DNA of 38,890 nucleotides from Bacilli bacterium (GTDB taxonomy: Bacteria > Bacillota_I > Bacilli_A > RF39 > UBA660), in NCBI GenBank assembly GCA_045580645.1, contig JAZNOG010000026.1, forward strand, positions 1 through 38,890. Direction: 5' to 3'. The notes under the pieces were generated by a model. That model was not told the DNA's origin, ran no database searches, and was given only the letters and a program-made list of their open reading frames with translations. Both the position numbers and the translations under genes were made by a program. This document shows positions 1,820 through 38,805 of this stretch, piece by piece. Numbering within the stretch: the stretch's first letter is position 1; each line of letters begins with the position of its first letter.

Positions 1820-2935
1820 CTATTCGTTATTTAATGTTAATTTAATATCAACTATTTTAACTTCTTTACCCCTTACATAAGTTAATTTAATAGTGTCTCC
1901 TGGTGAATATTTATATAACTCATATCTTAAATATCCAACACTCTTAACTTTTTCATTATTAACCTTAGTAATAACATCTCCCTTTTGAAGTAAACCCTCA
2001 GCAGGAGAATTATCTGCAACTGCAACTACTACCGCACCACTTTCTATAGAATTATCTAACATAATTCTATTTTGATACAAATAATATGTATCAGTTACAT
2101 TCACCATAGAAACACCAAGTAAAGGCCTTTCTAATTTTTCGCCTTTTTCAAACTGTTCAACATGAAGCATAACATCCTCAATCGGAATTGCAAATCCAAT
2201 TCCTTCAACTTCATCCTCAACTATTTTCAAAGAATTTATTCCTATAACTTCACCATTTGAATTTACTAAAGGTCCACCACTATTACCTGGATTAATCGCA
2301 GCATCTGTTTGAAGAACTTTCATTATATAATCTCCAGAACCATTTGTATTAGAAACACTTACCAACCTATCTTTACCTGATAAAATTCCTTTTGTAACAG
2401 TTCCCATATACTCTAAATCCACTGGAGTTCCAATAGTAAATACAGTATCACCAAGTTTTGACTCCTCACTAGAACCAAGTTCTGAAACCTTTAAAACTTC
2501 ACTTTTATCAATAGCAATAACTGCTATATCCAAAAGTTCATCTCCACCTAAATAAGTTGCATCAACTGTTTTTTCATTAGATAAAGTAACCTTTAAACTA
2601 GTATTACCACCAACTACATGATAATTAGTAAGTAAATACCCATATTTAGAATCCACTTTATATACAAATCCAGTTCCAGTTGAATATAATTTATCATTCT
2701 TAAAATTTTGAATTAATACAACTGCATCATATATTTTATCAACAGAATCACTTATCCCCTTTTCGTTAATTGTAACCTTATTTTCACAAGCAGTATAACA
2801 AACACCATTTGATGAAGAATAACCACCAAAAAGCTGATCTTTAAATTTATAAATACAAAGAATAGTAGCAAAAACACCCATAAAAAACACTACAAAACAA
2901 ATTACTATTTTAGAAACAACTTTATTTTCTGTCAT
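1820..2935 (-). CDS. htrA: HtrA/DegP-family serine protease with N-terminal membrane anchor and C-terminal PDZ domain
   Basis: Trypsin-like triad contexts TNYHVVGG, DIAVIAI and GNSGGPLVN. PDZ-like tail (AEGLLQKGDVITKVNNEKV). Confidence 0.9.
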   Translation of the reverse strand: MTENKVVSKIVICFVVFFMGVFATILCIYKFKDQLFGGYSSSNGVCYTACENKVTINEKGISDSVDKIYDAVVLIQNFKNDKLYSTGTGFVYKVDSKYGYLLTNYHVVGGNTSLKVTLSNEKTVDATYLGGDELLDIAVIAIDKSEVLKVSELGSSEESKLGDTVFTIGTPVDLEYMGTVTKGILSGKDRLVSVSNTNGSGDYIMKVLQTDAAINPGNSGGPLVNSNGEVIGINSLKIVEDEVEGIGFAIPIEDVMLHVEQFEKGEKLERPLLGVSMVNVTDTYYLYQNRIMLDNSIESGAVVVAVADNSPAEGLLQKGDVITKVNNEKVKSVGYLRYELYKYSPGDTIKLTYVRGKEVKIVDIKLTLNNE

Positions 2936-3882
2936 AAAAACAACTCCCTCTTTTCTATATCAATAATATCCATAAAGTTTTCAGGAAATCCCATTCTATC
3001 TAAAATTTTATTTATTGGAATAGTTCTTAAATTATACTCTAAATTTTCAATTACACTCTTAAGTTCCAACATTAAATTTCTAACTTCAGATTCCTTAAGC
3101 ATAGACTTCATAATAATAATTAACGCAAATAAATCATTCTTTCCATATATAAATTCATTATTCATAATAGGAATTTTAAGTAAATTATGATATTTACAAT
3201 CATCTATATATTTAAATGTTCTATTATCATACAAAATATCCTCATGAGCACATAAATTTCTATAATTCGAAAGTATTGGAAGATAATCTAAAAATTGACT
3301 AAGTTCTACATCATATAAATCAATAATTGCATATTGATCTTCCTTCTTCAAAATAGAAAAAAGCTCAGTAACAATACCAAAAGATAAAACCTTTACTAAA
3401 ACCCATAAAGGAATATAACCATAATTATTTATATAATGCTGTGTTGCAGAATGTTGTGTTGCATTAACCTTAATTTGTCTTTTCATTTTATTTAACAAAT
3501 CATTAACTTGTCTTCTTTTTTCACTAGAAGTATTAAAATTATTAGGATTTAAATAATTCTTTTCCCTATAACCATATTTTAATGATAATTGATATGAAAT
3601 TATAGACTTAAGATTATTTTCAATAATAAGAATATTTTTAAATATAATATTTCTTAGCTCCCTATCGAATAAAAGTAAACTATACACTTCTTCAAATCTA
3701 GTTCCATCAATATATACCTTATTATCTTTTGACTTCATAAAAGGATGACGATAACCATTAAGAAAAAAATAATTTTCCCTAAGCAATATCTCTTTCGCAT
3801 ACTTTTCATCATTTATAACAAGATTCTTACTTCTTAAAATTTCAATTTGTTCATCTAATGTCTTAAATATTTTATTCCCCAT
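2932..3882 (-). CDS. Abi_2 (AbiD/AbiF-like) abortive-infection family protein
   Basis: The N-terminus FKTLDEQIEILRSKNLVINDEKYAKEILLRENYFFLNGYRHPF matches the AbiD/AbiF-type family signature, and the ~316 aa size fits. Its stop overlaps the htrA start (ATGA at 2932-2935). Confidence 0.8.
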   Translation of the reverse strand: MGNKIFKTLDEQIEILRSKNLVINDEKYAKEILLRENYFFLNGYRHPFMKSKDNKVYIDGTRFEEVYSLLLFDRELRNIIFKNILIIENNLKSIISYQLSLKYGYREKNYLNPNNFNTSSEKRRQVNDLLNKMKRQIKVNATQHSATQHYINNYGYIPLWVLVKVLSFGIVTELFSILKKEDQYAIIDLYDVELSQFLDYLPILSNYRNLCAHEDILYDNRTFKYIDDCKYHNLLKIPIMNNEFIYGKNDLFALIIIMKSMLKESEVRNLMLELKSVIENLEYNLRTIPINKILDRMGFPENFMDIIDIEKRELFL

Positions 3883-5910: not shown

Positions 5911-6510
5911 TTATTTAAGATATTCTTGATAATCTAAATACTCCCCATCTTTAGAAAAAACTAAATATAAATTACTACTAGCTTCCCCCAAAAACTCTCC
6001 TTTATTTACATAATCATATAAATTAACACTTATATTTGAAATATTACCATACCAAACATCAACACCATCAACTTGTTGAATAATAACAGTTTTTCCATAT
6101 CCATCCTTTTCACCAGAAAAAACCACTATCCCACTTTCTAGTATTGGAACAAGATATTGAGCATCAACAGTAAGTTTAACTCCATCCTTGTAAATGCTAG
6201 AATCACTATATGATAAACTTTCATTAAAAACAGAAACAACATCATCTTTAACTATTTTTTCAAAAGGCAAAATATCTCCAAAATTATCCTTAAACCACTT
6301 ATTTATTGAAGCAAAACTTATATTATGACTAGATATATACTTATAAATAACTTGATTGTTATTCTTATCTATCTTTAAAACAATAAGCCCCACCAAAAAT
6401 AAAACAATACAAATCATAACTTTAAATAACAATTTAACAAAAAAACCTTTTATACTTTTTTTACTTTTTTGTTTCATTAAAAACTTATTAACAGACTTAT
6501 ACTCACCCAT
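5911..6510 (-). CDS. membrane-anchored degenerate M23/LytM-domain protein, SpoIVFA-like
   Basis: One TM helix and a C-terminal LytM-like fold (GIVVFSGEKDGYGKTVIIQQVDGVDVWYGN...VNKGEFLG). Sits upstream of spoIVFB. Start set to the ATG at 6510 after GGTAGGTGA. Confidence 0.6.
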   Translation of the reverse strand: MGEYKSVNKFLMKQKSKKSIKGFFVKLLFKVMICIVLFLVGLIVLKIDKNNNQVIYKYISSHNISFASINKWFKDNFGDILPFEKIVKDDVVSVFNESLSYSDSSIYKDGVKLTVDAQYLVPILESGIVVFSGEKDGYGKTVIIQQVDGVDVWYGNISNISVNLYDYVNKGEFLGEASSNLYLVFSKDGEYLDYQEYLK

Positions 6511-6542
6511 TTTTATCACCTACCAAAATATATGATAGATAA

Positions 6543-7028
6543 CTAATATTTAAGTTTTTTATTATAACCAAAAATACGACCTTTATATACAAAAATAAAA
6601 ATAAGAAAAAATAAATAATTCAAAATTAAAGAATGACTAAACTTATAAAAAAAATCATTTATATCCATAAAACTAAACCCAAGTAAATTAAGTAATAAAA
6701 GCACTAAAAAATCATACAAAAATACACATAATATAAAAGACAAAAACAAATTAAAAACTTTTCTATTTCTATTTAATAAATGAATAATTAAACCAATAAC
6801 AATCAAAACTAAAACATTTAAAAATATAAAAGAACTATAAAAAACATCATATAAAAAACCAATAACAATCAAAATAATAAAAAAACTTTTTTTAGAAAAT
6901 AAATAATACATTATAGGAATAAAACTAATAAAAATCATAGGTGTAAAATATGATAAATTATTATAAGAATAAGGTATAATTTGCCAAAGACTAAAATCTA
7001 AAAACAATACAAATATTAAAAAAATCAT
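6543..7028 (-). CDS. mreD: rod shape-determining protein MreD
   Basis: Small, very hydrophobic 5-TM protein. Its start overlaps the mreC stop (ATGA at 7025-7028). Confidence 0.75.
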   Translation of the reverse strand: MIFLIFVLFLDFSLWQIIPYSYNNLSYFTPMIFISFIPIMYYLFSKKSFFIILIVIGFLYDVFYSSFIFLNVLVLIVIGLIIHLLNRNRKVFNLFLSFILCVFLYDFLVLLLLNLLGFSFMDINDFFYKFSHSLILNYLFFLIFIFVYKGRIFGYNKKLKY

Positions 7029-13579: not shown

Positions 13580-14128
13580 TCACTTTTTCCCAAAAACCGA
13601 AAGTATCTTAGATATTTCAAACAAAATATCATTACACTTATTAACAGCAAAACCTTTTCCTATAGCTTTTCCTCCAATAGTTAAAGCAGAAATAACGCCA
13701 GTTAATATAAGTATTAAATAAAAAGAATTAACATCTAAAATATTAGAAAGTTTAAGCGCAATTGAAAGTCCACAAGAACCACTAATAACACCACAAATAT
13801 CTCCAATTACATCATTACAAAAAGATGAAGCCTTATCCCTTTTATTTATTAATTTTATTGCAATCTTAGAACCTTTTATCTTTTGAGATGCCATAGAATG
13901 AAATATCTTTTCATCTGCTGTTGTAATAGAAACCCCAATAATATCAAATATAACACCCAAAAATATAAAAAATAATAACAGAAAAATTGAAAGCAATATA
14001 TTTGCCTTAGGTATTATAAGTTCTGATACCAAAGAAAGCAAAAAAGATATAACAAAAGATAAAATAGTAATTAATAAAATCCATGATACATTCTTATCAG
14101 TCTTATTCTTATTTTTCTTTTTTTCCAT
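13580..14128 (-). CDS. four-TM membrane protein (~20 kDa) with a basic loop and a DxxxD motif; possibly OLE-associated protein A (OapA)-like
   Basis: Four hydrophobic helices. K-rich loop SQKIKGSKIAIKLINKRDK. NDVIGDICG (D106/D110 counting from the ATG at 14128). Its SD, AGGTGA, overlaps the stop of the upstream 252-aa gene. The OapA assignment is inference from size, topology and motif only. Confidence 0.35.
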   Translation of the reverse strand: MEKKKNKNKTDKNVSWILLITILSFVISFLLSLVSELIIPKANILLSIFLLLFFIFLGVIFDIIGVSITTADEKIFHSMASQKIKGSKIAIKLINKRDKASSFCNDVIGDICGVISGSCGLSIALKLSNILDVNSFYLILILTGVISALTIGGKAIGKGFAVNKCNDILFEISKILSVFGKK

Positions 14129-14133
14129 AGCTA

Positions 14134-14892
14134 TCACCTAAAAACATCTTCTCTTATTTTCTTCAATATCTCCAAAACATCATGATTATGAGCACTAGAA
14201 CACATACCAAAACATAAAAACAAATTTTTAATAACATCTATATTATGTTTATCTAATCTAAGAATTCCATACTTTATCTTACTAGAATTATTTCCTATTA
14301 TTTCATTACTATTTAAAAACTCTAACATAGGAATATCCATATAAAGCATTGGTTGAACCCCAGTAGCGTATTGCTGTTTTTGAATAGTAATTTCAGATAC
14401 AATAGAACAAGAATCACTAAGCATATTAAAAGTAGGAAGAGTTATAACAGACTTAAAAAAATCAACATTATTTATCTCAACTTCGCCTTCAACTATTGCT
14501 TTAATAGGATACATATCCTGTAAAAATTCTTTTATATTTTCTATAAAATTAATTAAATCTTCTACTTCATTCTTACTTATTAAACCTATTTTACAAGCAT
14601 AATAAAAAATTTCTGATAATTCATAAGGATTCTTATTCTTTCCATTTGCACCTACAAAAACTAAATTAGTTAAAGCAGTTGTTTTACTATCATCATTTAC
14701 CTTAACATCATAACCAATTTGCCATTCAACATAACTATTCTTACTTATCAAAGTAGACTTAGGTCCAAAACTTTTTCCATATTCTTGAAAGTGATCTCTA
14801 TATTTACATCTAAATTTTCCCTGACTAGTTAAAGGAACAAAAACATCAATATAAGAATCATTTACTTCATATTTCATCTGTGGAACTACCAT
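14134..14892 (-). CDS. hypothetical cytoplasmic protein (252 aa); candidate restriction-endonuclease partner of the divergent methyltransferase
   Basis: GGAGG SD before the ATG at 14892. No motif I can assign with confidence. Divergent from the MTase gene, with 123 bp between them. Confidence 0.3.
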   Translation of the reverse strand: MVVPQMKYEVNDSYIDVFVPLTSQGKFRCKYRDHFQEYGKSFGPKSTLISKNSYVEWQIGYDVKVNDDSKTTALTNLVFVGANGKNKNPYELSEIFYYACKIGLISKNEVEDLINFIENIKEFLQDMYPIKAIVEGEVEINNVDFFKSVITLPTFNMLSDSCSIVSEITIQKQQYATGVQPMLYMDIPMLEFLNSNEIIGNNSSKIKYGILRLDKHNIDVIKNLFLCFGMCSSAHNHDVLEILKKIREDVFR

Positions 14893-14962
14893 AAATAACC
14901 TCCAATTAATAATTATATATTTATTTTAACAATTTTTATGTATTATTACAACAACCAATATA

Positions 14963-14991
14963 TTGAAGAAAAAAAACTATTTTGCTATAAT
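14963..14991 (+). promoter_or_regulatory. sigma-A-type promoter of the methyltransferase gene
   Basis: TTGAAG (14963-14968), 17-bp spacer ending in TGc, then TATAAT (14986-14991). SD AAGGAG at 15001-15006. Confidence 0.6.
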
Positions 14992-15015
14992 AAAATAACA
15001 AAGGAGACTAAAAAT

Positions 15016-16167
15016 ATGATAAATCTATCAGAAAATACCCACCTAACTCGTGAAGATATCATTAAAAACGGAAGTATATTCACGACAGAAAATTTAGTAA
15101 ATATAGTATACAATATGCTTGAAAAATATATAGACGATAACAAAATAATTGCTGATTTCGGCGCAGGTTATGGTTCATTTATCAAAGTCTTTCAAAACAA
15201 AGGAAAAAAATGTTTTGGAACAGAAATTGATAAACAATCATACGAACTACTAAAAAAACAATTTCCAAATACAGAATTTTATCTAGAAAACTCTCTTTTT
15301 AACGTAAATAGAAAAAAATACAACATCAAAAAAAATGACGAACTAATTATAATAGGAAACCCACCTTACAATGACATAACAAGCCTCTACAAAAAAGGCA
15401 ACAAAGGAAATATATTATGCGATGAAGACATAAAATCAAGAGATTTTGGAATATCATTTTTAAAAGCCTATAACAAATTAAATGCTAAATACATATGTAT
15501 ATTACATCCACTTGCCTATTTAATAAAAAAACAAAATTTTAAATCATTAGATAATTTTAGAGAAAATTATAAATTGATAGATGCTACAATTTTTTCAAGT
15601 AAAGAATTTGAATCAATAAAAAAGACAAACTCAGAGTTCCCCGTAGTAGCGGCACTATATGAAAAAAACAATAACGGAATGGACTTCAACTATATAGAAA
15701 ACTTTAACTTTAAGATACTAAATTCAAACAAAACATTATGTTTAAATAAAATATCCACAATTGATGGAAAAATAAATAAATATCCAAAAAAAGAAAAACA
15801 AGAAAAACTACAATTTTATACCTTAAGAGACATAAATGCCTTAAAAAGAAATGCTACCTTTATAGAAGGAAAAATAACTAATGGTATAGATGTCAATATT
15901 AAAAACCTATATCAATATGCTTGGTTGTATTTTTTCAAAAATAATTTTAATCCAAAAGAAAACAATTTTATATATAACAATTTATCCCCTTTATATACAA
16001 AAAAAATTGAAGAAAAAAAATATCAAAACGCACTAGTATCGTATGCGTTCAATAATTGTCCTTTAATAAAAAAATACATTTCAAAAGAAGAAATAGAAAA
16101 AGAATATGGAATAATAATAAATAATTATGAAATAATACTAGAAGAAATAGAAAAACTATATATATAA
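15016..16167 (+). CDS. N6-adenine DNA methyltransferase, gamma class (Eco57I/TaqI-like)
   Basis: Motif I IIADFGAGYGSF precedes motif IV IIIGNPPYN, and a variable C-terminal half fits a target-recognition domain. Start moved to the ATG at 15016 (SD AAGGAG 9 nt upstream); the predicted promoter lies inside the track's longer ORF. Confidence 0.8.
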   Translation: MINLSENTHLTREDIIKNGSIFTTENLVNIVYNMLEKYIDDNKIIADFGAGYGSFIKVFQNKGKKCFGTEIDKQSYELLKKQFPNTEFYLENSLFNVNRKKYNIKKNDELIIIGNPPYNDITSLYKKGNKGNILCDEDIKSRDFGISFLKAYNKLNAKYICILHPLAYLIKKQNFKSLDNFRENYKLIDATIFSSKEFESIKKTNSEFPVVAALYEKNNNGMDFNYIENFNFKILNSNKTLCLNKISTIDGKINKYPKKEKQEKLQFYTLRDINALKRNATFIEGKITNGIDVNIKNLYQYAWLYFFKNNFNPKENNFIYNNLSPLYTKKIEEKKYQNALVSYAFNNCPLIKKYISKEEIEKEYGIIINNYEIILEEIEKLYI

Positions 16168-16190
16168 AATGCAAAATTTGCATTTTTTTT
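16167..16190 (+). terminator. intrinsic terminator of the methyltransferase gene
   Basis: AAUGCA-loop-UGCAUU hairpin directly after the TAA, followed by a U-run (16183-16190). Confidence 0.55.
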
Positions 16191-16193
16191 AAT

Positions 16194-16215
16194 AAAAAAA
16201 AAGAGCAAACGCTCT
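16194..16215 (-). terminator. intrinsic terminator of the large ncRNA
   Basis: Minus strand AGAGC-GUUU-GCUCU followed by 9 U. Lies back to back with the MTase terminator. Confidence 0.55.
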
Positions 16216-16806
16216 AAATAAATGGTCTATTCTATAATTAATTTTACGTCTTAGGTCAAGTTGGATTTCCCTATTTCTTACTATCCGTTACCAGATAAGC
16301 AGTTCCCTTTTAAAAGAAACAGTAGTATGTCACCATATCTACGACTTGATTACCACTTAGTACGCACTTAAATCTTATAGAATGTCACTCTAGGGGTTTT
16401 CCCCAATAACTTGTTATCTATTAATACTCTTTTGCAACTAAAGTTTCAAAAAGCGATTCCTATAATAACTGGCCAATTATTATAAGATTGTTCCTTTATC
16501 CCCCTTAATCACTCAAGTCAAGCTACTCTATTCATAACTCATCGCCACATAATAGGTTCTTTCTTATCTCGTAGAAAATCATCAAGTTGTCTGTATAGAT
16601 TTTCCACAATAATAAGTCTCCACGAATAAATGGAAACATTCCTTACATGCCATTGTAAGTGTCCATAAATTCTTAACCCTCAGCATCCACCCTAAACTGG
16701 GCGTAAAAGGCAAACACCAAGGACTTCACAGATATGCTCTTTAGTGGATTTTTAGGCCCACCCTCATAGATAACTTATTAACTAGAATAATGTGCCATCT
16801 GTTAAT
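16196..16806 (-). ncRNA. large (~610 nt) structured non-coding RNA candidate, OLE/ROOL-class; class unassigned
   Basis: No ORF in any frame. About 35% G+C by hand count (210/600 over 16201-16800), against 13-28% in sampled flanking lines. Own promoter and terminator. 5'/3' closing helix (16798-16795 with 16225-16222; 16789-16783 with 16234-16228). Hairpins at 16487-16458, 16666-16630 and 16404-16393. Confidence 0.7.
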
Positions 16807-16812
16807 AAACTA

Positions 16813-16841
16813 ATTATACCACAAAACTTAAAAAAAATCAA
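16813..16841 (-). promoter_or_regulatory. sigma-A-type promoter of the large ncRNA
   Basis: Minus strand TTGATT (16841-16836), 17-bp spacer, then TGgTATAAT (-10 at 16818-16813). The -35 box contains the TGA stop of the LysM gene. Confidence 0.65.
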
Positions 16842-17287
16842 ATTTTACGGTTTACAATAAGCTGATCAGGCAATAAATATATACTATTATTACTATATAA
16901 CACATCTTGTGGATCAACTTTAAAATATGAAGCAACAGAAGTAATTGTATCCCCATCACTTGTTATATATGTTTGTATATTCACCTTAGGAACAAGAAGC
17001 GTTTGTCCAGGATAAATATATTCATTAGCATTTAAACCATTAATTGCAGAAAGTGTCTTACTATTCGTTCCATAGGCACTTGCAATCTTATATAAAGTAT
17101 CATTCTTACTTACCTTATAATAATCAAAAATATTAAAAGTTCCAGTAGGAATATTCAAAACTTGTCCCTCTACTATATTATATGGCTTTTTCAAATTATT
17201 AAATCTTATAATCTCAATCGCGGGAATATTATATAAACTAGAAATAGAACTAATAGTATCATCTTTTTTAACCAAATATGTATCCAT
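16838..17287 (-). CDS. LysM-repeat peptidoglycan-binding protein (three LysM domains)
   Basis: Three copies of the Y.VKKGDTL..IA......I...N.L......GQ.L.IP pattern. Start at the ATG at 17287 after AAAGGGG. Confidence 0.85.
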   Translation of the reverse strand: MDTYLVKKDDTISSISSLYNIPAIEIIRFNNLKKPYNIVEGQVLNIPTGTFNIFDYYKVSKNDTLYKIASAYGTNSKTLSAINGLNANEYIYPGQTLLVPKVNIQTYITSDGDTITSVASYFKVDPQDVLYSNNSIYLLPDQLIVNRKI

Positions 17288-17331
17288 GATAACCCCTTTC
17301 ATTAAAATATATGAAAAAAGAAGTAAAAATT

Positions 17332-18486
17332 TTACTTCTTATAAACAAAAACTCTATTAAAAGGATTAAACCTAAGTTCATCATAAATAACAACCGGTTT
17401 TATAACACTACCTATTTCATAATAATATAAAATATTATCACTAACAAAATATATAATATTATCTAAAATATTTATATTATTAATCTTCATATTAAACAAA
17501 ATAGTTTCAACCTTAGTTTCTTTATTATACATATAAAAATTATTATCATTATCTAAATAATAAGAAAAATTATCTAAATCCTTATAAAAAACATATCCAT
17601 TGTTATTCCCAAAAATCTTCTTCTCATTCTTAAATTCATAAATATCTAAAGTTTTAAAAGAATCATCATAAAACAAAGCACCAAGCTTCTTATTACCAAC
17701 TTCCCTAATTTTTTTATTCTTAGGATTTATCTCATATTGAACTAGGGTATCAACATCAAATAAATAAATTTTTCCATCTACAATTCCATTTATATAACAA
17801 TTTTTACTAATAGAATCCTTAAGATTAATAACTTTCTTTCTATCGTTTACAATATTATAAATATAAATACTATTATATTCATACTTATCATCATAATTTA
17901 AAGTAACATAATATTTATCTACTAAAACACCTAATTCATTATTATAAACATCATTAGAAAAAACATCTATAACAGAAAGTTCATCACTAACCTTATAAAA
18001 ACCATTATAATTCCAAATATAAATATAATTATCATCTAAAACATTATCAACATAAACCTTAGATAAATCCAAATTTTTTGTTTTAAAACTTTCTTCTTCC
18101 TGTAAAGCAAAATCACTTAATTCTTCTAAAAAATAATATGAAGAATAACTATTACCATCTTTAAAACAACTAACATAACTATTTTCCAAATTTATATCAA
18201 TACATTTTAAATTATCTTTCTCATAATAACTAATATTTTTTACAATCTCTTTATCCTTATGATAAACATTATCTAAAATATAAGAAAAATATTCTTCCCC
18301 TAAACTAACTTTAATATAATACTTATCATGCTTAAATATTTCGTTAACTACATACTTTTTATCATCAAATTTTAACTCATAATTTATATCATGTTTAGTC
18401 TTAAAACACCAAAAAATAAATTGTCCAATAAAATATAAAATAATTAAAATCAATAATAACTTTACTACTTTTTTCAAACCTACCAC
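17332..18486 (-). CDS. membrane-anchored hypothetical protein with Y/N/D-rich beta-repeat (propeller-like) ectodomain
   Basis: N-terminal TM helix (LLLILIILYFIGQFIFWCF). Repeated motifs of the DGKIYLFD / DNIIYFVSDNILYYYE type. The start is ambiguous: GTG at 18486, or TTG at 18477 after AGGTGG. Confidence 0.5.
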   Translation of the reverse strand: MVGLKKVVKLLLILIILYFIGQFIFWCFKTKHDINYELKFDDKKYVVNEIFKHDKYYIKVSLGEEYFSYILDNVYHKDKEIVKNISYYEKDNLKCIDINLENSYVSCFKDGNSYSSYYFLEELSDFALQEEESFKTKNLDLSKVYVDNVLDDNYIYIWNYNGFYKVSDELSVIDVFSNDVYNNELGVLVDKYYVTLNYDDKYEYNSIYIYNIVNDRKKVINLKDSISKNCYINGIVDGKIYLFDVDTLVQYEINPKNKKIREVGNKKLGALFYDDSFKTLDIYEFKNEKKIFGNNNGYVFYKDLDNFSYYLDNDNNFYMYNKETKVETILFNMKINNINILDNIIYFVSDNILYYYEIGSVIKPVVIYDELRFNPFNRVFVYKK

Positions 18487-20171: not shown

Positions 20172-21251
20172 TTATAATTGTTCAACAAAAGTATCATATA
20201 TTCTAATATACCTATATGTTATCCTATTAGTTCCCTCTTTTTTCTCTTTTATAACTACATTAAGTTCTATCAATTTATTTAAAATATTTAAAATAGAATT
20301 TATATGAACATTAAGTTCATCAGCCATTTCTTGCGCTGTAAACACTATTTTTTTCATCATTAAAGGATGCATTTTTAGAACAATACTTCCTTTTATATTT
20401 TGTTTTATTGTTTCCTCATCTTCATTATAAACCCTATTGATTTTTTCTATTCTGCCAATATTTCTCGTGCATTGGTCAATAACACATTGTAAGAAAAATC
20501 TAATAAATCCATCTATGTTACCATTTCTACATTCATTAAGTGCATTATAGTAATTAGCTTTAAATAATTCTATAATTTCTGATAAAAATAATATTGGTTC
20601 ATCATCTTTTAATTTAGCAAGTTGTAATGTCATTAAAGCTCTTCCCATTCTTCCGTTTCCATCTTTATATGGATGAATAGATTCAAATTGAACATGAGAG
20701 ATTGCCACTTTAATAAAAGATTCTTCATCATATAAATTATTCATATATTCCATTAAATTTTCTAAAAGAAAAGGCACATCTTCAGGAACTGGTGGAACAA
20801 ATGTTGCTCCTTCCTTACCAAGACCACGCAGTCCTATATAGTTTTGTATAGTTCTAATTTCTCCAGGTGATTTTTCTTCCCCTCTTACACCTGATAACAA
20901 AATTTTATGCATTGAATTGATCATATGAATACTAAAATCCTTATTTTTTAAGGTTTCATTAGCATACTCAAGCATTGATTTTAAATTTTTAACTTCCTTA
21001 ATACTATCATTAGACTCTTTAAAATTCATATAATACATATCATCTGGTGATATTTGAGTCCCCTCTATTCTAGATGATCTAGTACTTTCACCTAAAACTA
21101 AAGAATCCAAAAAATATTTTTGGTCAAATTTGAACATTTTTAATAATGATTTATATTGACCGTATTTATCATTAGCTTGACCTAACAATTTAATAGTTTC
21201 TTTATCAAGTTTATATGAAAAAGGCAACATTTTAGCTTTATATGGCTCCAT
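20172..21251 (-). CDS. Fic-family AMPylase-type protein (class II, with an intramolecular inhibitory helix) and a C-terminal winged-helix domain
   Basis: Fic motif HPYKDGNGRMGRAL. N-terminal inhibitory motif SSRIEG ((S/T)xxxE(G/N)). wHTH-like tail. Confidence 0.85.
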   Translation of the reverse strand: MEPYKAKMLPFSYKLDKETIKLLGQANDKYGQYKSLLKMFKFDQKYFLDSLVLGESTRSSRIEGTQISPDDMYYMNFKESNDSIKEVKNLKSMLEYANETLKNKDFSIHMINSMHKILLSGVRGEEKSPGEIRTIQNYIGLRGLGKEGATFVPPVPEDVPFLLENLMEYMNNLYDEESFIKVAISHVQFESIHPYKDGNGRMGRALMTLQLAKLKDDEPILFLSEIIELFKANYYNALNECRNGNIDGFIRFFLQCVIDQCTRNIGRIEKINRVYNEDEETIKQNIKGSIVLKMHPLMMKKIVFTAQEMADELNVHINSILNILNKLIELNVVIKEKKEGTNRITYRYIRIYDTFVEQL

Positions 21252-21380
21252 TTAATCACTCTCCTTAGTTATAATATATCATATTTTTGTAAAATTTATA
21301 CATTAAAATGCAAATTACTGTATATTTTACACTATATCTTAACAAATTTCAACACTTTTTTGTTTAAAATTTACACAAAC

Positions 21381-21402
21381 AAAAAAAGCAAGTATTAACA
21401 AG
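21381..21402. repeat. 22-bp direct repeat, copy 1 (AAAAAAAGCAAGTATTAACAAG)
   Basis: 21/22 identical to 24068-24089. Confidence 0.8.
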
Positions 21403-21412
21403 CTTTTCATCA

Positions 21413-21436
21413 CTAATCTTTAATTACTACAACTAA
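21413..21436. repeat. 24-bp direct repeat, copy B; a relic copy of the 3' end of the 651-aa gene
   Basis: 21/24 identical to 22068-22091. On the minus strand it reads L V V V I K D stop, against L V R V I K D stop for the real gene end. Confidence 0.7.
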
Positions 21437-21437
21437 A

Positions 21438-22043
21438 TTAATATCTTTTTCTTATTAGTTTCTTTTTATCATTTGAATCAATAACATACAGTTGTTCCCT
21501 CAAATTATTAAATATTTCTAAATTACCTTTATAACCCATAGGAGATACAGGACTTGGATGATAAATTGGTATAACTTTAATATCATTTATATAAAATTCT
21601 TTTCCAACCACTTCACTAAACTTTTTATATTTTATATTTAATACAGATTTTGTCGCAAAATCACCTAATGTTAAAACAATTTTTGGCTGAATTATTTCTA
21701 ATTGCATGCATAAAAATTTCCTACAATTATTACTACAATTACTCAAATACTTTCTATCTTTAGGAAAACATTTAATAGCTTCTAAAAAATACAAATCTTC
21801 AAGTTTTAATGAAACTATATCTAATAACCTTTGTAATACTATTCCTGAAGGTAATAATTTTCCATTAACGTCATACCAAGCAATTCCACTTTTTCGCCAA
21901 CCATTCCTTGCAGGTGCTTCACCTAATATTACAATATCATTTGCTTTACCCATAGAAACTGTATAACTATTAAGAAATTTTTCAATCATATCACCACATA
22001 AATTACAGTTATGTATTTCATTATCTATATCATCAAGTAACAT
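21438..22043 (-). CDS. uracil-DNA glycosylase superfamily protein (family 4-like)
   Basis: Motif A LGEAPARNGW and motif B PIYHPSP. N-terminal CNLC plus further Cys residues could ligate an Fe-S cluster. GGAG SD before the ATG at 22043. Confidence 0.7.
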   Translation of the reverse strand: MLLDDIDNEIHNCNLCGDMIEKFLNSYTVSMGKANDIVILGEAPARNGWRKSGIAWYDVNGKLLPSGIVLQRLLDIVSLKLEDLYFLEAIKCFPKDRKYLSNCSNNCRKFLCMQLEIIQPKIVLTLGDFATKSVLNIKYKKFSEVVGKEFYINDIKVIPIYHPSPVSPMGYKGNLEIFNNLREQLYVIDSNDKKKLIRKRY

Positions 22044-22067
22044 AAAAAACTCCTTTTATATTTTATA

Positions 22068-22091
22068 ATTAATCTTTAATTACTCTAACTA
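22068..22091. repeat. 24-bp direct repeat, copy A (the true 3' end of the 651-aa gene)
   Basis: See 21413-21436. Copies A and B bracket the UDG-like gene exactly. Confidence 0.7.
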
Positions 22092-24024
22092 ATGTATTAC
22101 TATCTAACTTCATCAGTTGTTCATTATAATCAATTAAACTTCTTATACTACTTTTAAACTTTAAACAAATAGAACTTATTTTCTTAACTTGTTCTTCTAC
22201 CAATAAATCACTTTCAATCACTTCATTACACTCTATTAATGTTAATTTTAAAAATTCATCTATATCACTTTTTAAACCAAAATTAGCCTTATCAATAACC
22301 TCTTTAGCATATTCAAGTGTTTCCTTAATAAAAGACTCTATAACCATATAATTAGTTAAATCACTAGATAACTTCTCATTAGTTACCTTAACTACTTCTT
22401 TATCATTCATAAGATTCTTTATATTATTTTTAATTATTTCTGTTTTTACTAATTCTATAAAACTATCCAAAGATTCATAAAAACTTTTAATTACTAAAGT
22501 CTTATCATCACTACTACATAAACTATTCTTATATTCTAAAAGTATAACTTTAAACCTTTCTAGAAAAACATCATCACCATATTCTTTTACAAATAAATAT
22601 TTTTCTCTCAATAACGAATTATTATCTTCTTCAATATTTTCTATATTTAACAGTTCACTTATAACATTAAAATTTTCTTCTATATAAATGTTTAATTCAT
22701 CAAGTAGTTTTGATAGTTCTAGTTCTAACGTTCTTTCAATATTATCTGTTTCTAAAGTAAGTTTTATACCATCACTATAATCTTGTTTAGTATAACCACT
22801 ATATTTATTTAAAATAACAAGTAACTTATCTTTAAAAAGATTGCTACTTTGTTCATCAAGTTTTTCTAAAATCAAAGCTATATCAACAACAGTAGAAAAT
22901 ACACCATCTTTATTTTCTAAACTATTAAGGAAACTAATTGACTTACTAACTTTATTACTAAAATCAGATGTCCTAAAAGAAATATTTAACAAAAGCAAAT
23001 TTAAACTAGATATAAAATTACCTCTAACTTGAAGTAAAGAATTAGGACTTAAAGATAAAGAAGTATCCCTATCATATGTAGGTTTTACACTTTTAACACC
23101 TTCTTGATAAGTTCTTTTAATTTCTTCTAATTTTTCTAAATATATTTGTCGTTCTTCTTCCTTTAAATTTTGGGTTAAACCAAGTATTTTATTCACTAAC
23201 TTTTGTTCTTCCGATAATTCTTTATTTTCAATAACATTTATTTTAACTTCATTTGCAACAATGTTATGCACAAAATGCCTATCAATAAATTTTTTTATAG
23301 TAGAACTATTAAATTTACCATTATATGTATGGCTATCATTAAAACAAACAGATGAAAATAACAATTTTTTTGTAAGCGCAATATCATTTTTCTCATCTAT
23401 CAAATATTCTATTGGCTCCACTTTAACCCAATAATGTTCATTTTTTCTTATTTTTCTACCATCTGATAAAATTCTTCCCTTCATATAATATTTACCCAAT
23501 ACAAAAACATATTTATCCCCATCATACTCATATTCATAGTATTCTTTTGTATCAATATTATAAATTTTCCCTGTTAATTTTAAAGTATTATTTTTAAGAT
23601 TTTTAGTTAATTTTCTTGATAATTTTTTATCAACAATTGTCTGTGGATATTCATCACATAAAACCTCAAAAACCTCTGTACCAATTCTTGATTTAATAAA
23701 GCACATAGAAGAAATTGATGAATAAGAAGTACAAAGTCGATAATTTAAATTAGGATAATCTAGTAGTGAAGATATATACTTTATCCCTTTTTCAGTAACT
23801 GTAAAAACACTATCGGTAAAAACTTCATGATTAGTCTTAGTCCACCACCAACCAGCACCTTTTTTTAACCCCGTTTTGTTATCAATATATTCATAAGGAA
23901 TGTAACTACCACCCAAAAGAATAGCAAAATCTGTTATTTCTGCTTTTGTCCCTATTCTTTTAAACATATCAAGACAATCTTTACCCCATATTTGATCTTT
24001 TTCTAATAAAGTAAATTCTCTCAT
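22069..24024 (-). CDS. large hypothetical protein (651 aa): N-terminal ~230-aa globular domain plus a long helical, repeat-like C-terminal region
   Basis: The N-terminal domain has GAGWWWTKT and VEPIEYLIDEKNDIALTKKLLF, which from memory resemble DUF6273-type domains. The remainder is E/K/L/N-rich and predicted helical. Possible promoter TTGCTT-17-TATAAT (-10 at 24050-24055). Confidence 0.5.
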   Translation of the reverse strand: MREFTLLEKDQIWGKDCLDMFKRIGTKAEITDFAILLGGSYIPYEYIDNKTGLKKGAGWWWTKTNHEVFTDSVFTVTEKGIKYISSLLDYPNLNYRLCTSYSSISSMCFIKSRIGTEVFEVLCDEYPQTIVDKKLSRKLTKNLKNNTLKLTGKIYNIDTKEYYEYEYDGDKYVFVLGKYYMKGRILSDGRKIRKNEHYWVKVEPIEYLIDEKNDIALTKKLLFSSVCFNDSHTYNGKFNSSTIKKFIDRHFVHNIVANEVKINVIENKELSEEQKLVNKILGLTQNLKEEERQIYLEKLEEIKRTYQEGVKSVKPTYDRDTSLSLSPNSLLQVRGNFISSLNLLLLNISFRTSDFSNKVSKSISFLNSLENKDGVFSTVVDIALILEKLDEQSSNLFKDKLLVILNKYSGYTKQDYSDGIKLTLETDNIERTLELELSKLLDELNIYIEENFNVISELLNIENIEEDNNSLLREKYLFVKEYGDDVFLERFKVILLEYKNSLCSSDDKTLVIKSFYESLDSFIELVKTEIIKNNIKNLMNDKEVVKVTNEKLSSDLTNYMVIESFIKETLEYAKEVIDKANFGLKSDIDEFLKLTLIECNEVIESDLLVEEQVKKISSICLKFKSSIRSLIDYNEQLMKLDSNTLVRVIKD

Positions 24025-37842: not shown

Positions 37843-37914
37843 AATATCACCCATTAAATTTTATTTTTATATTTCATATTTATGAAAATTATGTATAATA
37901 AAATTGGTGATTTT

Positions 37915-38805
37915 ATGAACTCTTTAAAAAACTGCACATTATGTCCTCATAATTGTAAAGTAGATAGAACAAAAACATTAGGATTTTGTAAAGCAAATGA
38001 CAAATTAAAAATTGCAAGAGCAGATCTTTATTACTATGAAGAACCATGCATTTCAGGAACACAAGGTAGTGGTGCAATCTTTTTTAGCAACTGTAATTTA
38101 AAATGTATTTACTGTCAAAACTATGAAATAAGCTGTGACAACATTGGTAAAGAAATAACAATAAATCATCTAGTTGACATCTTGTTAGACTTGCAAAAAC
38201 AAAATGCCTTAAATATTAACTTAGTAACGCCAACACATTATGTTCCTTTAATAATTAAAGCTTTAAAAATAGCTAAACAAAAAGGCCTAACAATACCAAT
38301 TGTATACAACACTAGTAGTTATGAAAATGTAGAAACAATAAAATCATTAAATGGGTTAATAGATATATATCTACCAGATTTTAAATATTATGATGATAAA
38401 TATGCAATAAAATACTCAAAAGCACCAAATTATTTTAAATATGCTAAAGATGCAATAAATGAAATGTTCAAACAAGTAGGAAAACCAGTATTTGATGAAA
38501 ATAACAATTTAAAAAAAGGTGTTTTAATTAGACACCTAATACTACCAAATTTAAAAGAAGACTCCAAAAAAATTATAAAATACATTTATGATACCTATAA
38601 AGATAACGTTTATATAAGTATTATGAATCAATATACACAAATTAAAAATTATAAATATGAAGAACTAAATAGAAAAATAACTAATGAAGAATATGACGAA
38701 ATAATAGAATATGCCTACGATTTAGGTATTAGAAATGCTTATGTTCAAGAAAAAGGAACAGTAGACGAAAGCTTTATTCCAGATTTTAAAACACAAAACT
38801 TTTAA
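37915..38805 (+). CDS. radical SAM protein, PflX-like putative glycyl-radical-activating enzyme family
   Basis: CNLKCIYCQN (CxxxCxxC) plus an N-terminal CTLCPHNCKVDR cysteine cluster. Start at the ATG at 37915 after GGTGAT. Confidence 0.75.
   Translation: MNSLKNCTLCPHNCKVDRTKTLGFCKANDKLKIARADLYYYEEPCISGTQGSGAIFFSNCNLKCIYCQNYEISCDNIGKEITINHLVDILLDLQKQNALNINLVTPTHYVPLIIKALKIAKQKGLTIPIVYNTSSYENVETIKSLNGLIDIYLPDFKYYDDKYAIKYSKAPNYFKYAKDAINEMFKQVGKPVFDENNNLKKGVLIRHLILPNLKEDSKKIIKYIYDTYKDNVYISIMNQYTQIKNYKYEELNRKITNEEYDEIIEYAYDLGIRNAYVQEKGTVDESFIPDFKTQNF

Follow-up and report, generated by a model that had tools for sequence, protein, structure and literature searches.

Since 2006 a large structured RNA of bacteria has been known under the name OLE (ornate, large, extremophilic). 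It is expressed as an abundant, discrete RNA, and its hosts are typically anaerobes or extremophiles. OLE RNA has been catalogued in more than 2,800 species of Bacillota (PMC11332333), where its gene, ole, usually has the gene for OLE-associated protein A, oapA, immediately downstream (PMC11332333, PMC12265935), and RNA and protein are described in the literature as almost always co-occurring. OapA is a four-helix membrane protein with weak similarity to the CNNM/DUF21 proteins, which binds OLE RNA and carries it to the membrane (PMC11332333, PMC12265935). In Halalkalibacterium (Bacillus) halodurans the ole gene lies inside a long polycistronic operon, again with oapA immediately downstream (PMC12265935). 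The conserved loops of OLE are dimerisation contacts, and a GUGA tetraloop with a bulge is the site bound by a further protein, OapB (PMC12265935, PMC7936274). In the variant 1 and variant 2 OLE RNAs, helices P7-P9 are shortened or missing and the OapB site is often missing (PMC11332333). Here we describe an ole gene in a 38,890-nucleotide (nt) stretch of DNA from a Bacilli bacterium (contig JAZNOG010000026.1, positions 1 to 38,890), referred to below as the window. We conclude that the minus strand of the window, from 16814 to 16206, is almost certainly the gene for a full-length OLE RNA, transcribed from a promoter of its own to a terminator of its own, that this RNA by homology would form a stress ribonucleoprotein (RNP) with OapA, and that the ole-oapA pair is split here by an insert carrying a PabI-family restriction-modification system. 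The RNA family is already known and the gene is a routine further member of it.

The gene and its immediate surroundings are as follows:

16206..16814, minus strand: OLE RNA gene of the full-length type (Rfam RF01071); probable transcript from ~16806 to ~16196, ~611 nt

16813..16841, minus strand: sigma-70-type promoter of ole, predicted, with TTGATT (16841-16836), a 17-nt spacer ending in TG, and TATAAT (16818-16813)

16194..16215, minus strand: intrinsic terminator of ole, predicted, AGAGC-GUUU-GCUCU and then a U run; AGAGCGTTTGCTCT with a T run

16838-17302, minus strand: open reading frame (ORF) for a LysM protein

Scanning the whole window against Rfam 15 at gathering thresholds gave one match, to OLE (RF01071), at 16814..16206 on the minus strand. 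It scores 393.3 bits against a threshold of 50 (E 3e-112) and covers model positions 1-616 of 616 without truncation, and OLE genes of relatives score 385-407 bits. The models for ROOL, GOLLD, raiA, RNase P, tmRNA and group II introns had no match in the window at their gathering scores, and ARAGORN found neither a tRNA nor a tmRNA in it. A preliminary description of the region, made from the letters of the sequence, had proposed a free-standing structured non-coding RNA gene of about 610 nt on the minus strand, of OLE or ROOL class and possibly of a new family, and had suggested an Rfam scan with these models as a check. The scan bears out the gene, its strand and its size, and settles the class, because it returns OLE alone; the full-length match excludes a new family. 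That the region might hold a different or new large structured RNA (ROOL, GOLLD, raiA or an undescribed one), merely OLE-sized, had in its favour that ~600 nt fits ROOL too and that the preliminary description had matched no consensus nucleotides. With the OLE model matched over all of its positions, no other Rfam family at gathering score, and the partner gene oapA present, we give this alternative next to no probability. As for "free-standing", the term holds for the transcription signals; functionally it does not, as the RNA belongs with oapA, 2 kb downstream.

The gap between the methyltransferase stop codon (16167) and the LysM stop codon (16838) was said to lack ORFs, and its longest ORF in any frame is indeed at most 44 amino acids. 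The earlier hand count of 210 G+C in 600 positions (35.0%) over 16201-16800 is exact; the OLE segment has 34.5% G+C, compared with 25.1% for the whole window and 23-28% for the flanking genes. Nucleotide blocks agreeing with the OLE consensus are CUAAAAAU, CGCCCAG, AAUGGCAU, UGGCCA, ACUAAGUGGUAAUC, GGGAAAUCC and GACCUAAG. The conserved loops that agree with it are CUAAAAAU, ACGCCCAGU, CAAUGGCAUG and UGGCCA, together with a hairpin that carries a GUGA tetraloop and a one-base bulge (U). Relative to the OLE model, the RNA lacks a small hairpin (model positions 424-435) and has 10 extra nt in a loop, this loop element being found also in close relatives such as the loci L001, L004 and L007 (related loci are designated here by L numbers).

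When the Rfam consensus structure is mapped onto the window RNA, 143 of the 152 model pairs for which both residues are present (94%) are canonical. The minimum-free-energy fold, at -156 kcal/mol, has a z-score of -3.3 relative to shuffled sequences and recovers many of the Rfam helices. For a comparative analysis, 74 full-length OLE genes found via the partner protein were aligned with the window RNA using MAFFT, blind to structure. The resulting set of 75 RNAs covers a single part of the OLE tree, chiefly bins of gut Bacilli, and is independent of the Rfam seed; all alignment statistics given below for individual helices refer to it. Over these RNAs the Rfam structure is 87.5% paired, compared with 39-45% after sliding the 3' partners by 1-3 columns. 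Covariation among relatives, the second check put forward in the preliminary description, is extensive, with changes on both sides in 117 of the 152 Rfam pairs, and none of 500 shuffles attains any of five measures. The OLE alignment contains 120 invariant columns.

Several helices had been drawn by hand in the preliminary description, and the family structure now allows them to be judged individually. Its 11-bp stem at 16487-16477/16468-16458 is the core, in identical register, of a 14-bp family helix at 16489-16476/16469-16456 with the loop UGGCCA, and its two-tier hairpin is in the register of the Rfam helices 16666-16663/16633-16630 and 16658-16654/16647-16643. The hairpin written as GGGG-AAAA-CCCC is a family hairpin, but its register was one base off, the family pairing being GGG with CCC around the loop GAAAA. 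The closing helix divides into two parts. Its outer part, AUGG/CCAU (16798-16795 with 16225-16222), is 91% paired and mostly invariant, with AU, GU, GC and UA all occurring at one pair; it lies outside the Rfam model and is plausible, on this alignment, as an outer closing helix. The inner part, UAUUCUA/UAGAAUA, was rejected: pairing reaches no more than 49%, the 5' strand is a box that does not vary in the family, and the 3' strand pairs instead with 16384-16376 in a helix that is 96% paired and in which 9 of 9 pairs covary, so that the complementarity seen in the single sequence is coincidental. The long-range pairing at 16590-16581/16350-16341 likewise did not survive, being 58-61% paired with no pair-type advantage; its 3' strand is 100% paired with 16263-16258, where the conserved AUCAAGU meets ACUUGA in 100% of the cells of the alignment.

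It is worth recording that the OLE hairpin loop at 16598-16579 carries a motif, CCUAUACA...UUGAUGG, which is common to many relatives (alignment columns 226-262). This motif contains ACUUGA, identical to the 3' strand at 16263-16258 that pairs with AUCAAGU. The copy in the loop could be an alternative partner, a tertiary contact or a chance occurrence.

The signals for transcription of ole are also in place, as had been read from the sequence. The putative promoter (TTGATT-17-TGgTATAAT, 16841-16813) is the top promoter-like site of the region, with 10 of 12 consensus matches and an extended -10 element, and its -35 box overlaps the LysM stop codon. Of 73 related OLE loci (L001-L086), 64 have a near-consensus promoter, TTGACA-17-TGnTATAAT, at a fixed distance of 19-28 nt before the UAUUCUAG box, which is invariant; it is therefore characteristic of the clade that OLE has a promoter to itself. 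Initiation some 7 nt past the -10 box would put the 5' end near 16806. At the other end, the terminator described earlier (AGAGC-GUUU-GCUCU and a U run, 16215-16194) is present, in a region where shuffled sequence yields 0.4-0.5 such sites. The same hairpin and T run follow OLE in the closest relatives that lack the insert, L001, L007 and L087, where oapA starts 20-70 nt later. Since these loci carry the hairpin without the insert, the terminator is ancestral and not insert-borne, and we rejected the idea that the insert delivered it. The transcript would thus be ~611 nt long, with predicted ends at ~16806 and ~16196. In this gut clade, then, ole has a dedicated promoter conserved in position and, in the closest relatives, a terminator before oapA, unlike the model organism, where the arrangement is polycistronic.

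The partner gene lies further along the same strand:

13580..14128, minus strand: oapA, OLE-associated protein A gene, encoding a membrane protein of 182 amino acids from the ATG at 14128

Homologues of the encoded protein number 5041, with a length of about 175-200 amino acids. At 182 amino acids the protein has the size usual for OapA, about 180-200. We surveyed one genome per species, giving 80 loci that encode a relative, and sought OLE at each with a hidden Markov model built from three OLE sequences. OLE is upstream of the oapA homologue and on the same strand at 76 of the 80 loci, directly upstream at ~69, and mostly ~10-100 nt before the start codon. No OLE was found by nhmmer and Rfam within 5 kb upstream of the oapA homologue in L011, L071 and L074, nor in L069, where the homologue is at the contig edge; OLE may sit elsewhere in those genomes.

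Family searches with the protein returned little at conventional thresholds. OapA has no Pfam or NCBIfam assignment, its exact sequence in the window is not on record, and a PDB sequence search with it gave chance-level matches alone, whereas a fold search succeeded. Sub-threshold matches to CNNM (PF01595) occur in 27 of 30 OapA members, the best with E 8e-7 and the window protein with E 6e-3. The AlphaFold2 model (pLDDT 85.6) predicts four long helices, at residues 10-38, 44-70, 97-131 and 135-163, in addition to short ones, and its top five PDB matches are CorB/CorC CNNM transmembrane domains (7m1t, 7m1u, 7cff, 7cfg; probability 0.97-1.00, TM 0.52-0.63). Judged by its homologues, the synteny with OLE, the CNNM similarity and the predicted CorB/CorC-like fold, the 182-amino-acid protein is OapA. 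Its ORF is intact, its ribosome-binding site is retained, and it has all 32 family-invariant residues, as defined by an alignment that includes the window OapA itself. The defining features of OLE and OapA that can be tested on sequence were all found, and the sole departure is that ole and oapA are not adjacent.

This departure is due to ~2.07 kb of DNA between the T run of the ole terminator and the oapA ribosome-binding site, which holds two genes:

14938..16167, plus strand: type II DNA methyltransferase gene, convergent with ole; PADLOC MTase_II E 2.2e-55, weak N6_N4_Mtase match

14134..14892, minus strand: PabI-family (R.Pab1) restriction endonuclease gene; Pfam RE_R_Pab1 E 4.5e-20, PDB 7cfa E 1.2e-31 over residues 15-246, PADLOC REase_II

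A PDB sequence search with the methyltransferase gave no match and its identity comes from PADLOC; NCBIfam models match neither the endonuclease nor OapA nor a 384-amino-acid neighbour discussed below. A weak AT-rich hairpin, TGCA-AAATT-TGCA followed by T7, can be read directly after the methyltransferase stop codon (~16170-16189), although the scan did not flag it. On the other side, the endonuclease stop codon TGA (14136-14134) lies inside AGGTGA, the Shine-Dalgarno sequence of oapA (ATG 14128), and an alternative GTG start of oapA at 14137 overlaps the same stop codon. A promoter-like sequence, TTGTAA-17-TGnTAAAAT, is found at 14951-14923 on the minus strand, just upstream of the endonuclease start. 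This arrangement suggests that oapA is probably expressed on the endonuclease transcript and not by read-through from ole. The insert is missing from the ole-oapA interval of L001, L004-L007 and L087, and its G+C content (23-26%) is in line with that of the host.

GTAC is the recognition site of PabI. The window contains 6 GTAC sites where 44 would be expected from trinucleotide frequencies (ratio 0.14), which makes it the most avoided of the 16 four-base palindromes, whereas in relatives without a PabI-type system the ratio is 0.7-1.2 (pooled 0.88). From this avoidance the restriction-modification system appears to be resident and active. The surviving sites are at 16360, 21082, 23678, 23729, 25993 and 26588, and one of them is inside the OLE gene (GUGCGUACUAAG).

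With ole and oapA 2.07 kb apart and a convergent gene between them, it might be argued that the insertion cut the RNA gene off from its partner and that ole, no longer used, is decaying. However, the OLE score is on par with those of relatives, 94% of the pairs are canonical, the conserved loops, promoter and terminator are intact, and oapA has kept its ORF, its family-invariant residues and its ribosome-binding site. Moreover, a terminator already separates ole from oapA in the closest relatives, so separate transcription predates the insertion, and the depletion of GTAC implies a restriction-modification system that has been resident for long, yet OLE is without decay. We therefore consider a decaying gene very improbable. 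A second concern is that the order ole, restriction-modification genes, oapA is an assembly chimera and that ole is beside oapA in the true genome, given that the relatives are known as metagenome bins alone and that one related short contig, L087, looks chimeric or truncated. However, synteny runs unbroken to either side of the insert (LysM, the 384-amino-acid gene, RNHCP and DnaB upstream; Der, SpoVIF and RuvAB downstream), the G+C content of the insert matches the host, the endonuclease ORF runs into the native oapA leader and stops there, and GTAC is avoided across the whole 39-kb window, as expected of a resident GTAC-specific system. A chimera is on these grounds extremely improbable.

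By analogy with the described OLE systems, we propose the following for this locus. The ole gene would be transcribed from its own sigma-70 promoter to its own intrinsic terminator, giving a non-coding RNA of ~611 nt. This RNA would fold into the conserved multi-helix architecture and dimerise via the A-rich, kissing and palindromic loops; it would be anchored at the membrane by the four-helix, CNNM-like OapA, bound as an OapA dimer. The RNP may then help the cell to tolerate stresses such as cold, short-chain alcohols, an excess of Mg2+ and poor carbon sources. For this organism the stress role, like dimerisation, assembly of the RNP and its localisation at the membrane, is transferred from homologous systems and should be read as such. 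What sets the locus apart is the split of the pair, a PabI-family type II system having been inserted between the ole terminator and the oapA ribosome-binding site.

Some points weigh against this interpretation. To our knowledge, the biochemical function of OLE is unknown even in the model organisms, and the proposed mechanism stops at the level of the RNP. The transcript ends and the abundance of the RNA are predictions for this organism. The separation of ole and oapA is unlike ~86% of the relatives sampled, and their coordinated expression is not something that can be assumed. Finally, a search of every ORF of 60 or more amino acids in the 39-kb window turned up no gene for OapB or OapC (no L7Ae or KOW-type match), a negative that is uninformative at this window size. 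OapB and OapC genes need not be linked to ole, and they are missing in some OLE-bearing clades (PMC11332333). Should OapB be encoded outside the window, the GUGA tetraloop and bulge that this RNA has kept suggest that the protein can bind it.

Genes in the ole-oapA interval are not confined to the window. Such genes occur in 7 of the 80 other species, all on the same strand, and they include a polysaccharide deacetylase (two species), DUF3800, Acyl_transf_3, a cold-shock CSD protein and a 192-amino-acid protein of unknown type, in addition to one longer spacer. None is a restriction-modification pair, and none of the other 80 sampled genomes showed such a pair in this position. The genes concerned are located at:

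L015 3448-4707, L029 348-1604, L059 4083-4817, L066 3488-4480, L023 4693-4908 and L070 4213-4791: extra genes in the ole-oapA interval

Cell-wall and cold-shock themes recur among the interval genes of other species. The interval tolerates insertions, in our case of a whole restriction-modification pair, which bears on the co-expression of the partners. A bolder idea, which we put forward tentatively and think somewhat doubtful, is that the ole-oapA junction is a recurrent landing site for accessory genes in gut Bacillota, and that in the window a selfish module has captured the expression of oapA, uncoupling the RNA from its obligatory partner. Capture is suggested because the endonuclease stop codon sits inside the oapA ribosome-binding site. 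If true, the locus would test, as an experiment of nature, how closely the amounts of OLE and OapA have to match, and the arrangement may make the restriction-modification module hard to lose. The interval genes of the seven other species could equally be functional additions to the OLE system.

The gene order of the relatives provides the background for the insertion. In L004-L006 it is LysM - OLE - oapA - Der - SpoVIF - RuvAB, and ole-oapA spacing in close relatives is 10-100 nt; the oapA start codon of L004 is a few bases past the OLE 3' tail. The nearest loci are from gut metagenome bins labelled Bacilli or Bacillota, the best of these being HGM10836 with 74% OapA identity. The closest relative, L087, has 90% OapA identity, and the 3' end of its ole adjoins oapA. 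In region 1-330 of the L087 contig, which is 1 kb long and has a coverage of 0.8, OLE is present from model position 286 on and is fused near nt 84 to sequence that looks coding. Either the assembly is chimeric here or the OLE gene is truncated, and L087 was used for the 3' junction alone.

The rest of the window encodes RuvAB, Der, SpoVIF, an alpha/beta SASP, a DnaB helicase loader, MreCD, AckA, ThiI, trigger factor and GreA; on this gene content it is ordinary chromosome of an AT-rich spore-former, and the host is a member of the Bacillota, which we take to be uncultured and gut-dwelling. Apart from the methyltransferase gene and the last ORF (37882-38805), every large ORF is on the minus strand, and over the whole window the plus strand has 7.8% G and 17.4% C, an extreme asymmetry consistent with one replichore of a Bacillota chromosome. 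An ORF of 384 amino acids at 17335-18486 has no match in Pfam, NCBIfam or PADLOC, and its synteny (RNHCP, 384-amino-acid gene, LysM, OLE) is kept in L001 (383 amino acids) and L004 (389 amino acids).

Further defence-related genes were noted. The block at 20175-24024 encodes a SoFic-type Fic protein (PADLOC E 2e-89), a uracil-DNA glycosylase family protein and a 651-amino-acid protein without a family match, and it lies between the DnaB-loader gene and a gene for a 160-amino-acid protein. That gene pair is adjacent in L004-L006, and the block is therefore a second accessory or defence insertion in the window. Three of the surviving GTAC sites are within this block, which suggests that it arrived recently. 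An AbiD/Abi_2 abortive-infection protein (PADLOC E 1e-62) is encoded at 2935-3882 among housekeeping genes, the third defence gene in 39 kb. Among relatives, L001/L002 have Dam-like methyltransferase fragments (MethyltransfD12) at 6292-6917, just upstream of OLE, where other relatives have LysM, and the L007 locus shows strong avoidance of GATC, with 1 site compared to 13 expected. In this clade, restriction-modification genes seem drawn to either side of ole.

The value of the gene as a discovery is small, as routine Rfam annotation would label it OLE, and the insertion is a small curiosity. It is nonetheless the case that a reading of the raw sequence was enough to recognise the gene of a large structured RNA and to place its promoter and terminator as well as its strand and ends.

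How, then, does the locus compare with the systems already described? The OLE RNA of H. halodurans is the genetic model for Rfam RF01071, and the partner protein family, OapA, is common to both organisms. The RNA belongs to the same family and has the same conserved loops, including the P13 GNRA (GUGA) tetraloop with the one-base bulge that binds OapB, and the weak CNNM similarity and CorB/CorC-like fold of our OapA are as published for the H. halodurans protein (PMC11332333). The differences are in the RNA itself, in which the hairpin at model positions 424-435 is absent, a 10-nt loop is inserted and G+C is 34.5%, and in the context. In the window, ole has its own promoter and terminator, oapA is 2.07 kb off behind a restriction-modification pair, and the neighbours are LysM, the DnaB loader, Der, SpoVIF and RuvAB, not isoprenoid or folate genes. 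The OLE RNAs of Clostridium acetobutylicum and C. botulinum have been seen as dimers by cryo-electron microscopy, and the loops described as dimer contacts there, namely the A-rich P4 loop, the P5.1/P6.1 kissing loops and the palindromic P9 loop GGCC, are all found in the window RNA and match the consensus.

The variant 1 (TANB77) and variant 2 (RF39) OLE RNAs come from hosts of the same kind, namely gut Bacillota that are uncultured, AT-rich and represented by metagenome bins (PMC11332333). Unlike them, the window RNA is of the full-length type and keeps the central helices, the long P9-type stem and the tetraloop and bulge of the OapB site. ROOL and GOLLD are also large structured bacterial non-coding RNAs, and ROOL is of similar length, but they have no OapA partner and no match in the window. 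Finally, the insert resembles the PabI systems (R.PabI; PDB 2dvy, 3waz, 7cfa) in its endonuclease match and in the adjacent type II methyltransferase, which are common to both. GTAC, the PabI site, is strongly avoided in the window, an indirect indication that the inserted system may recognise it.

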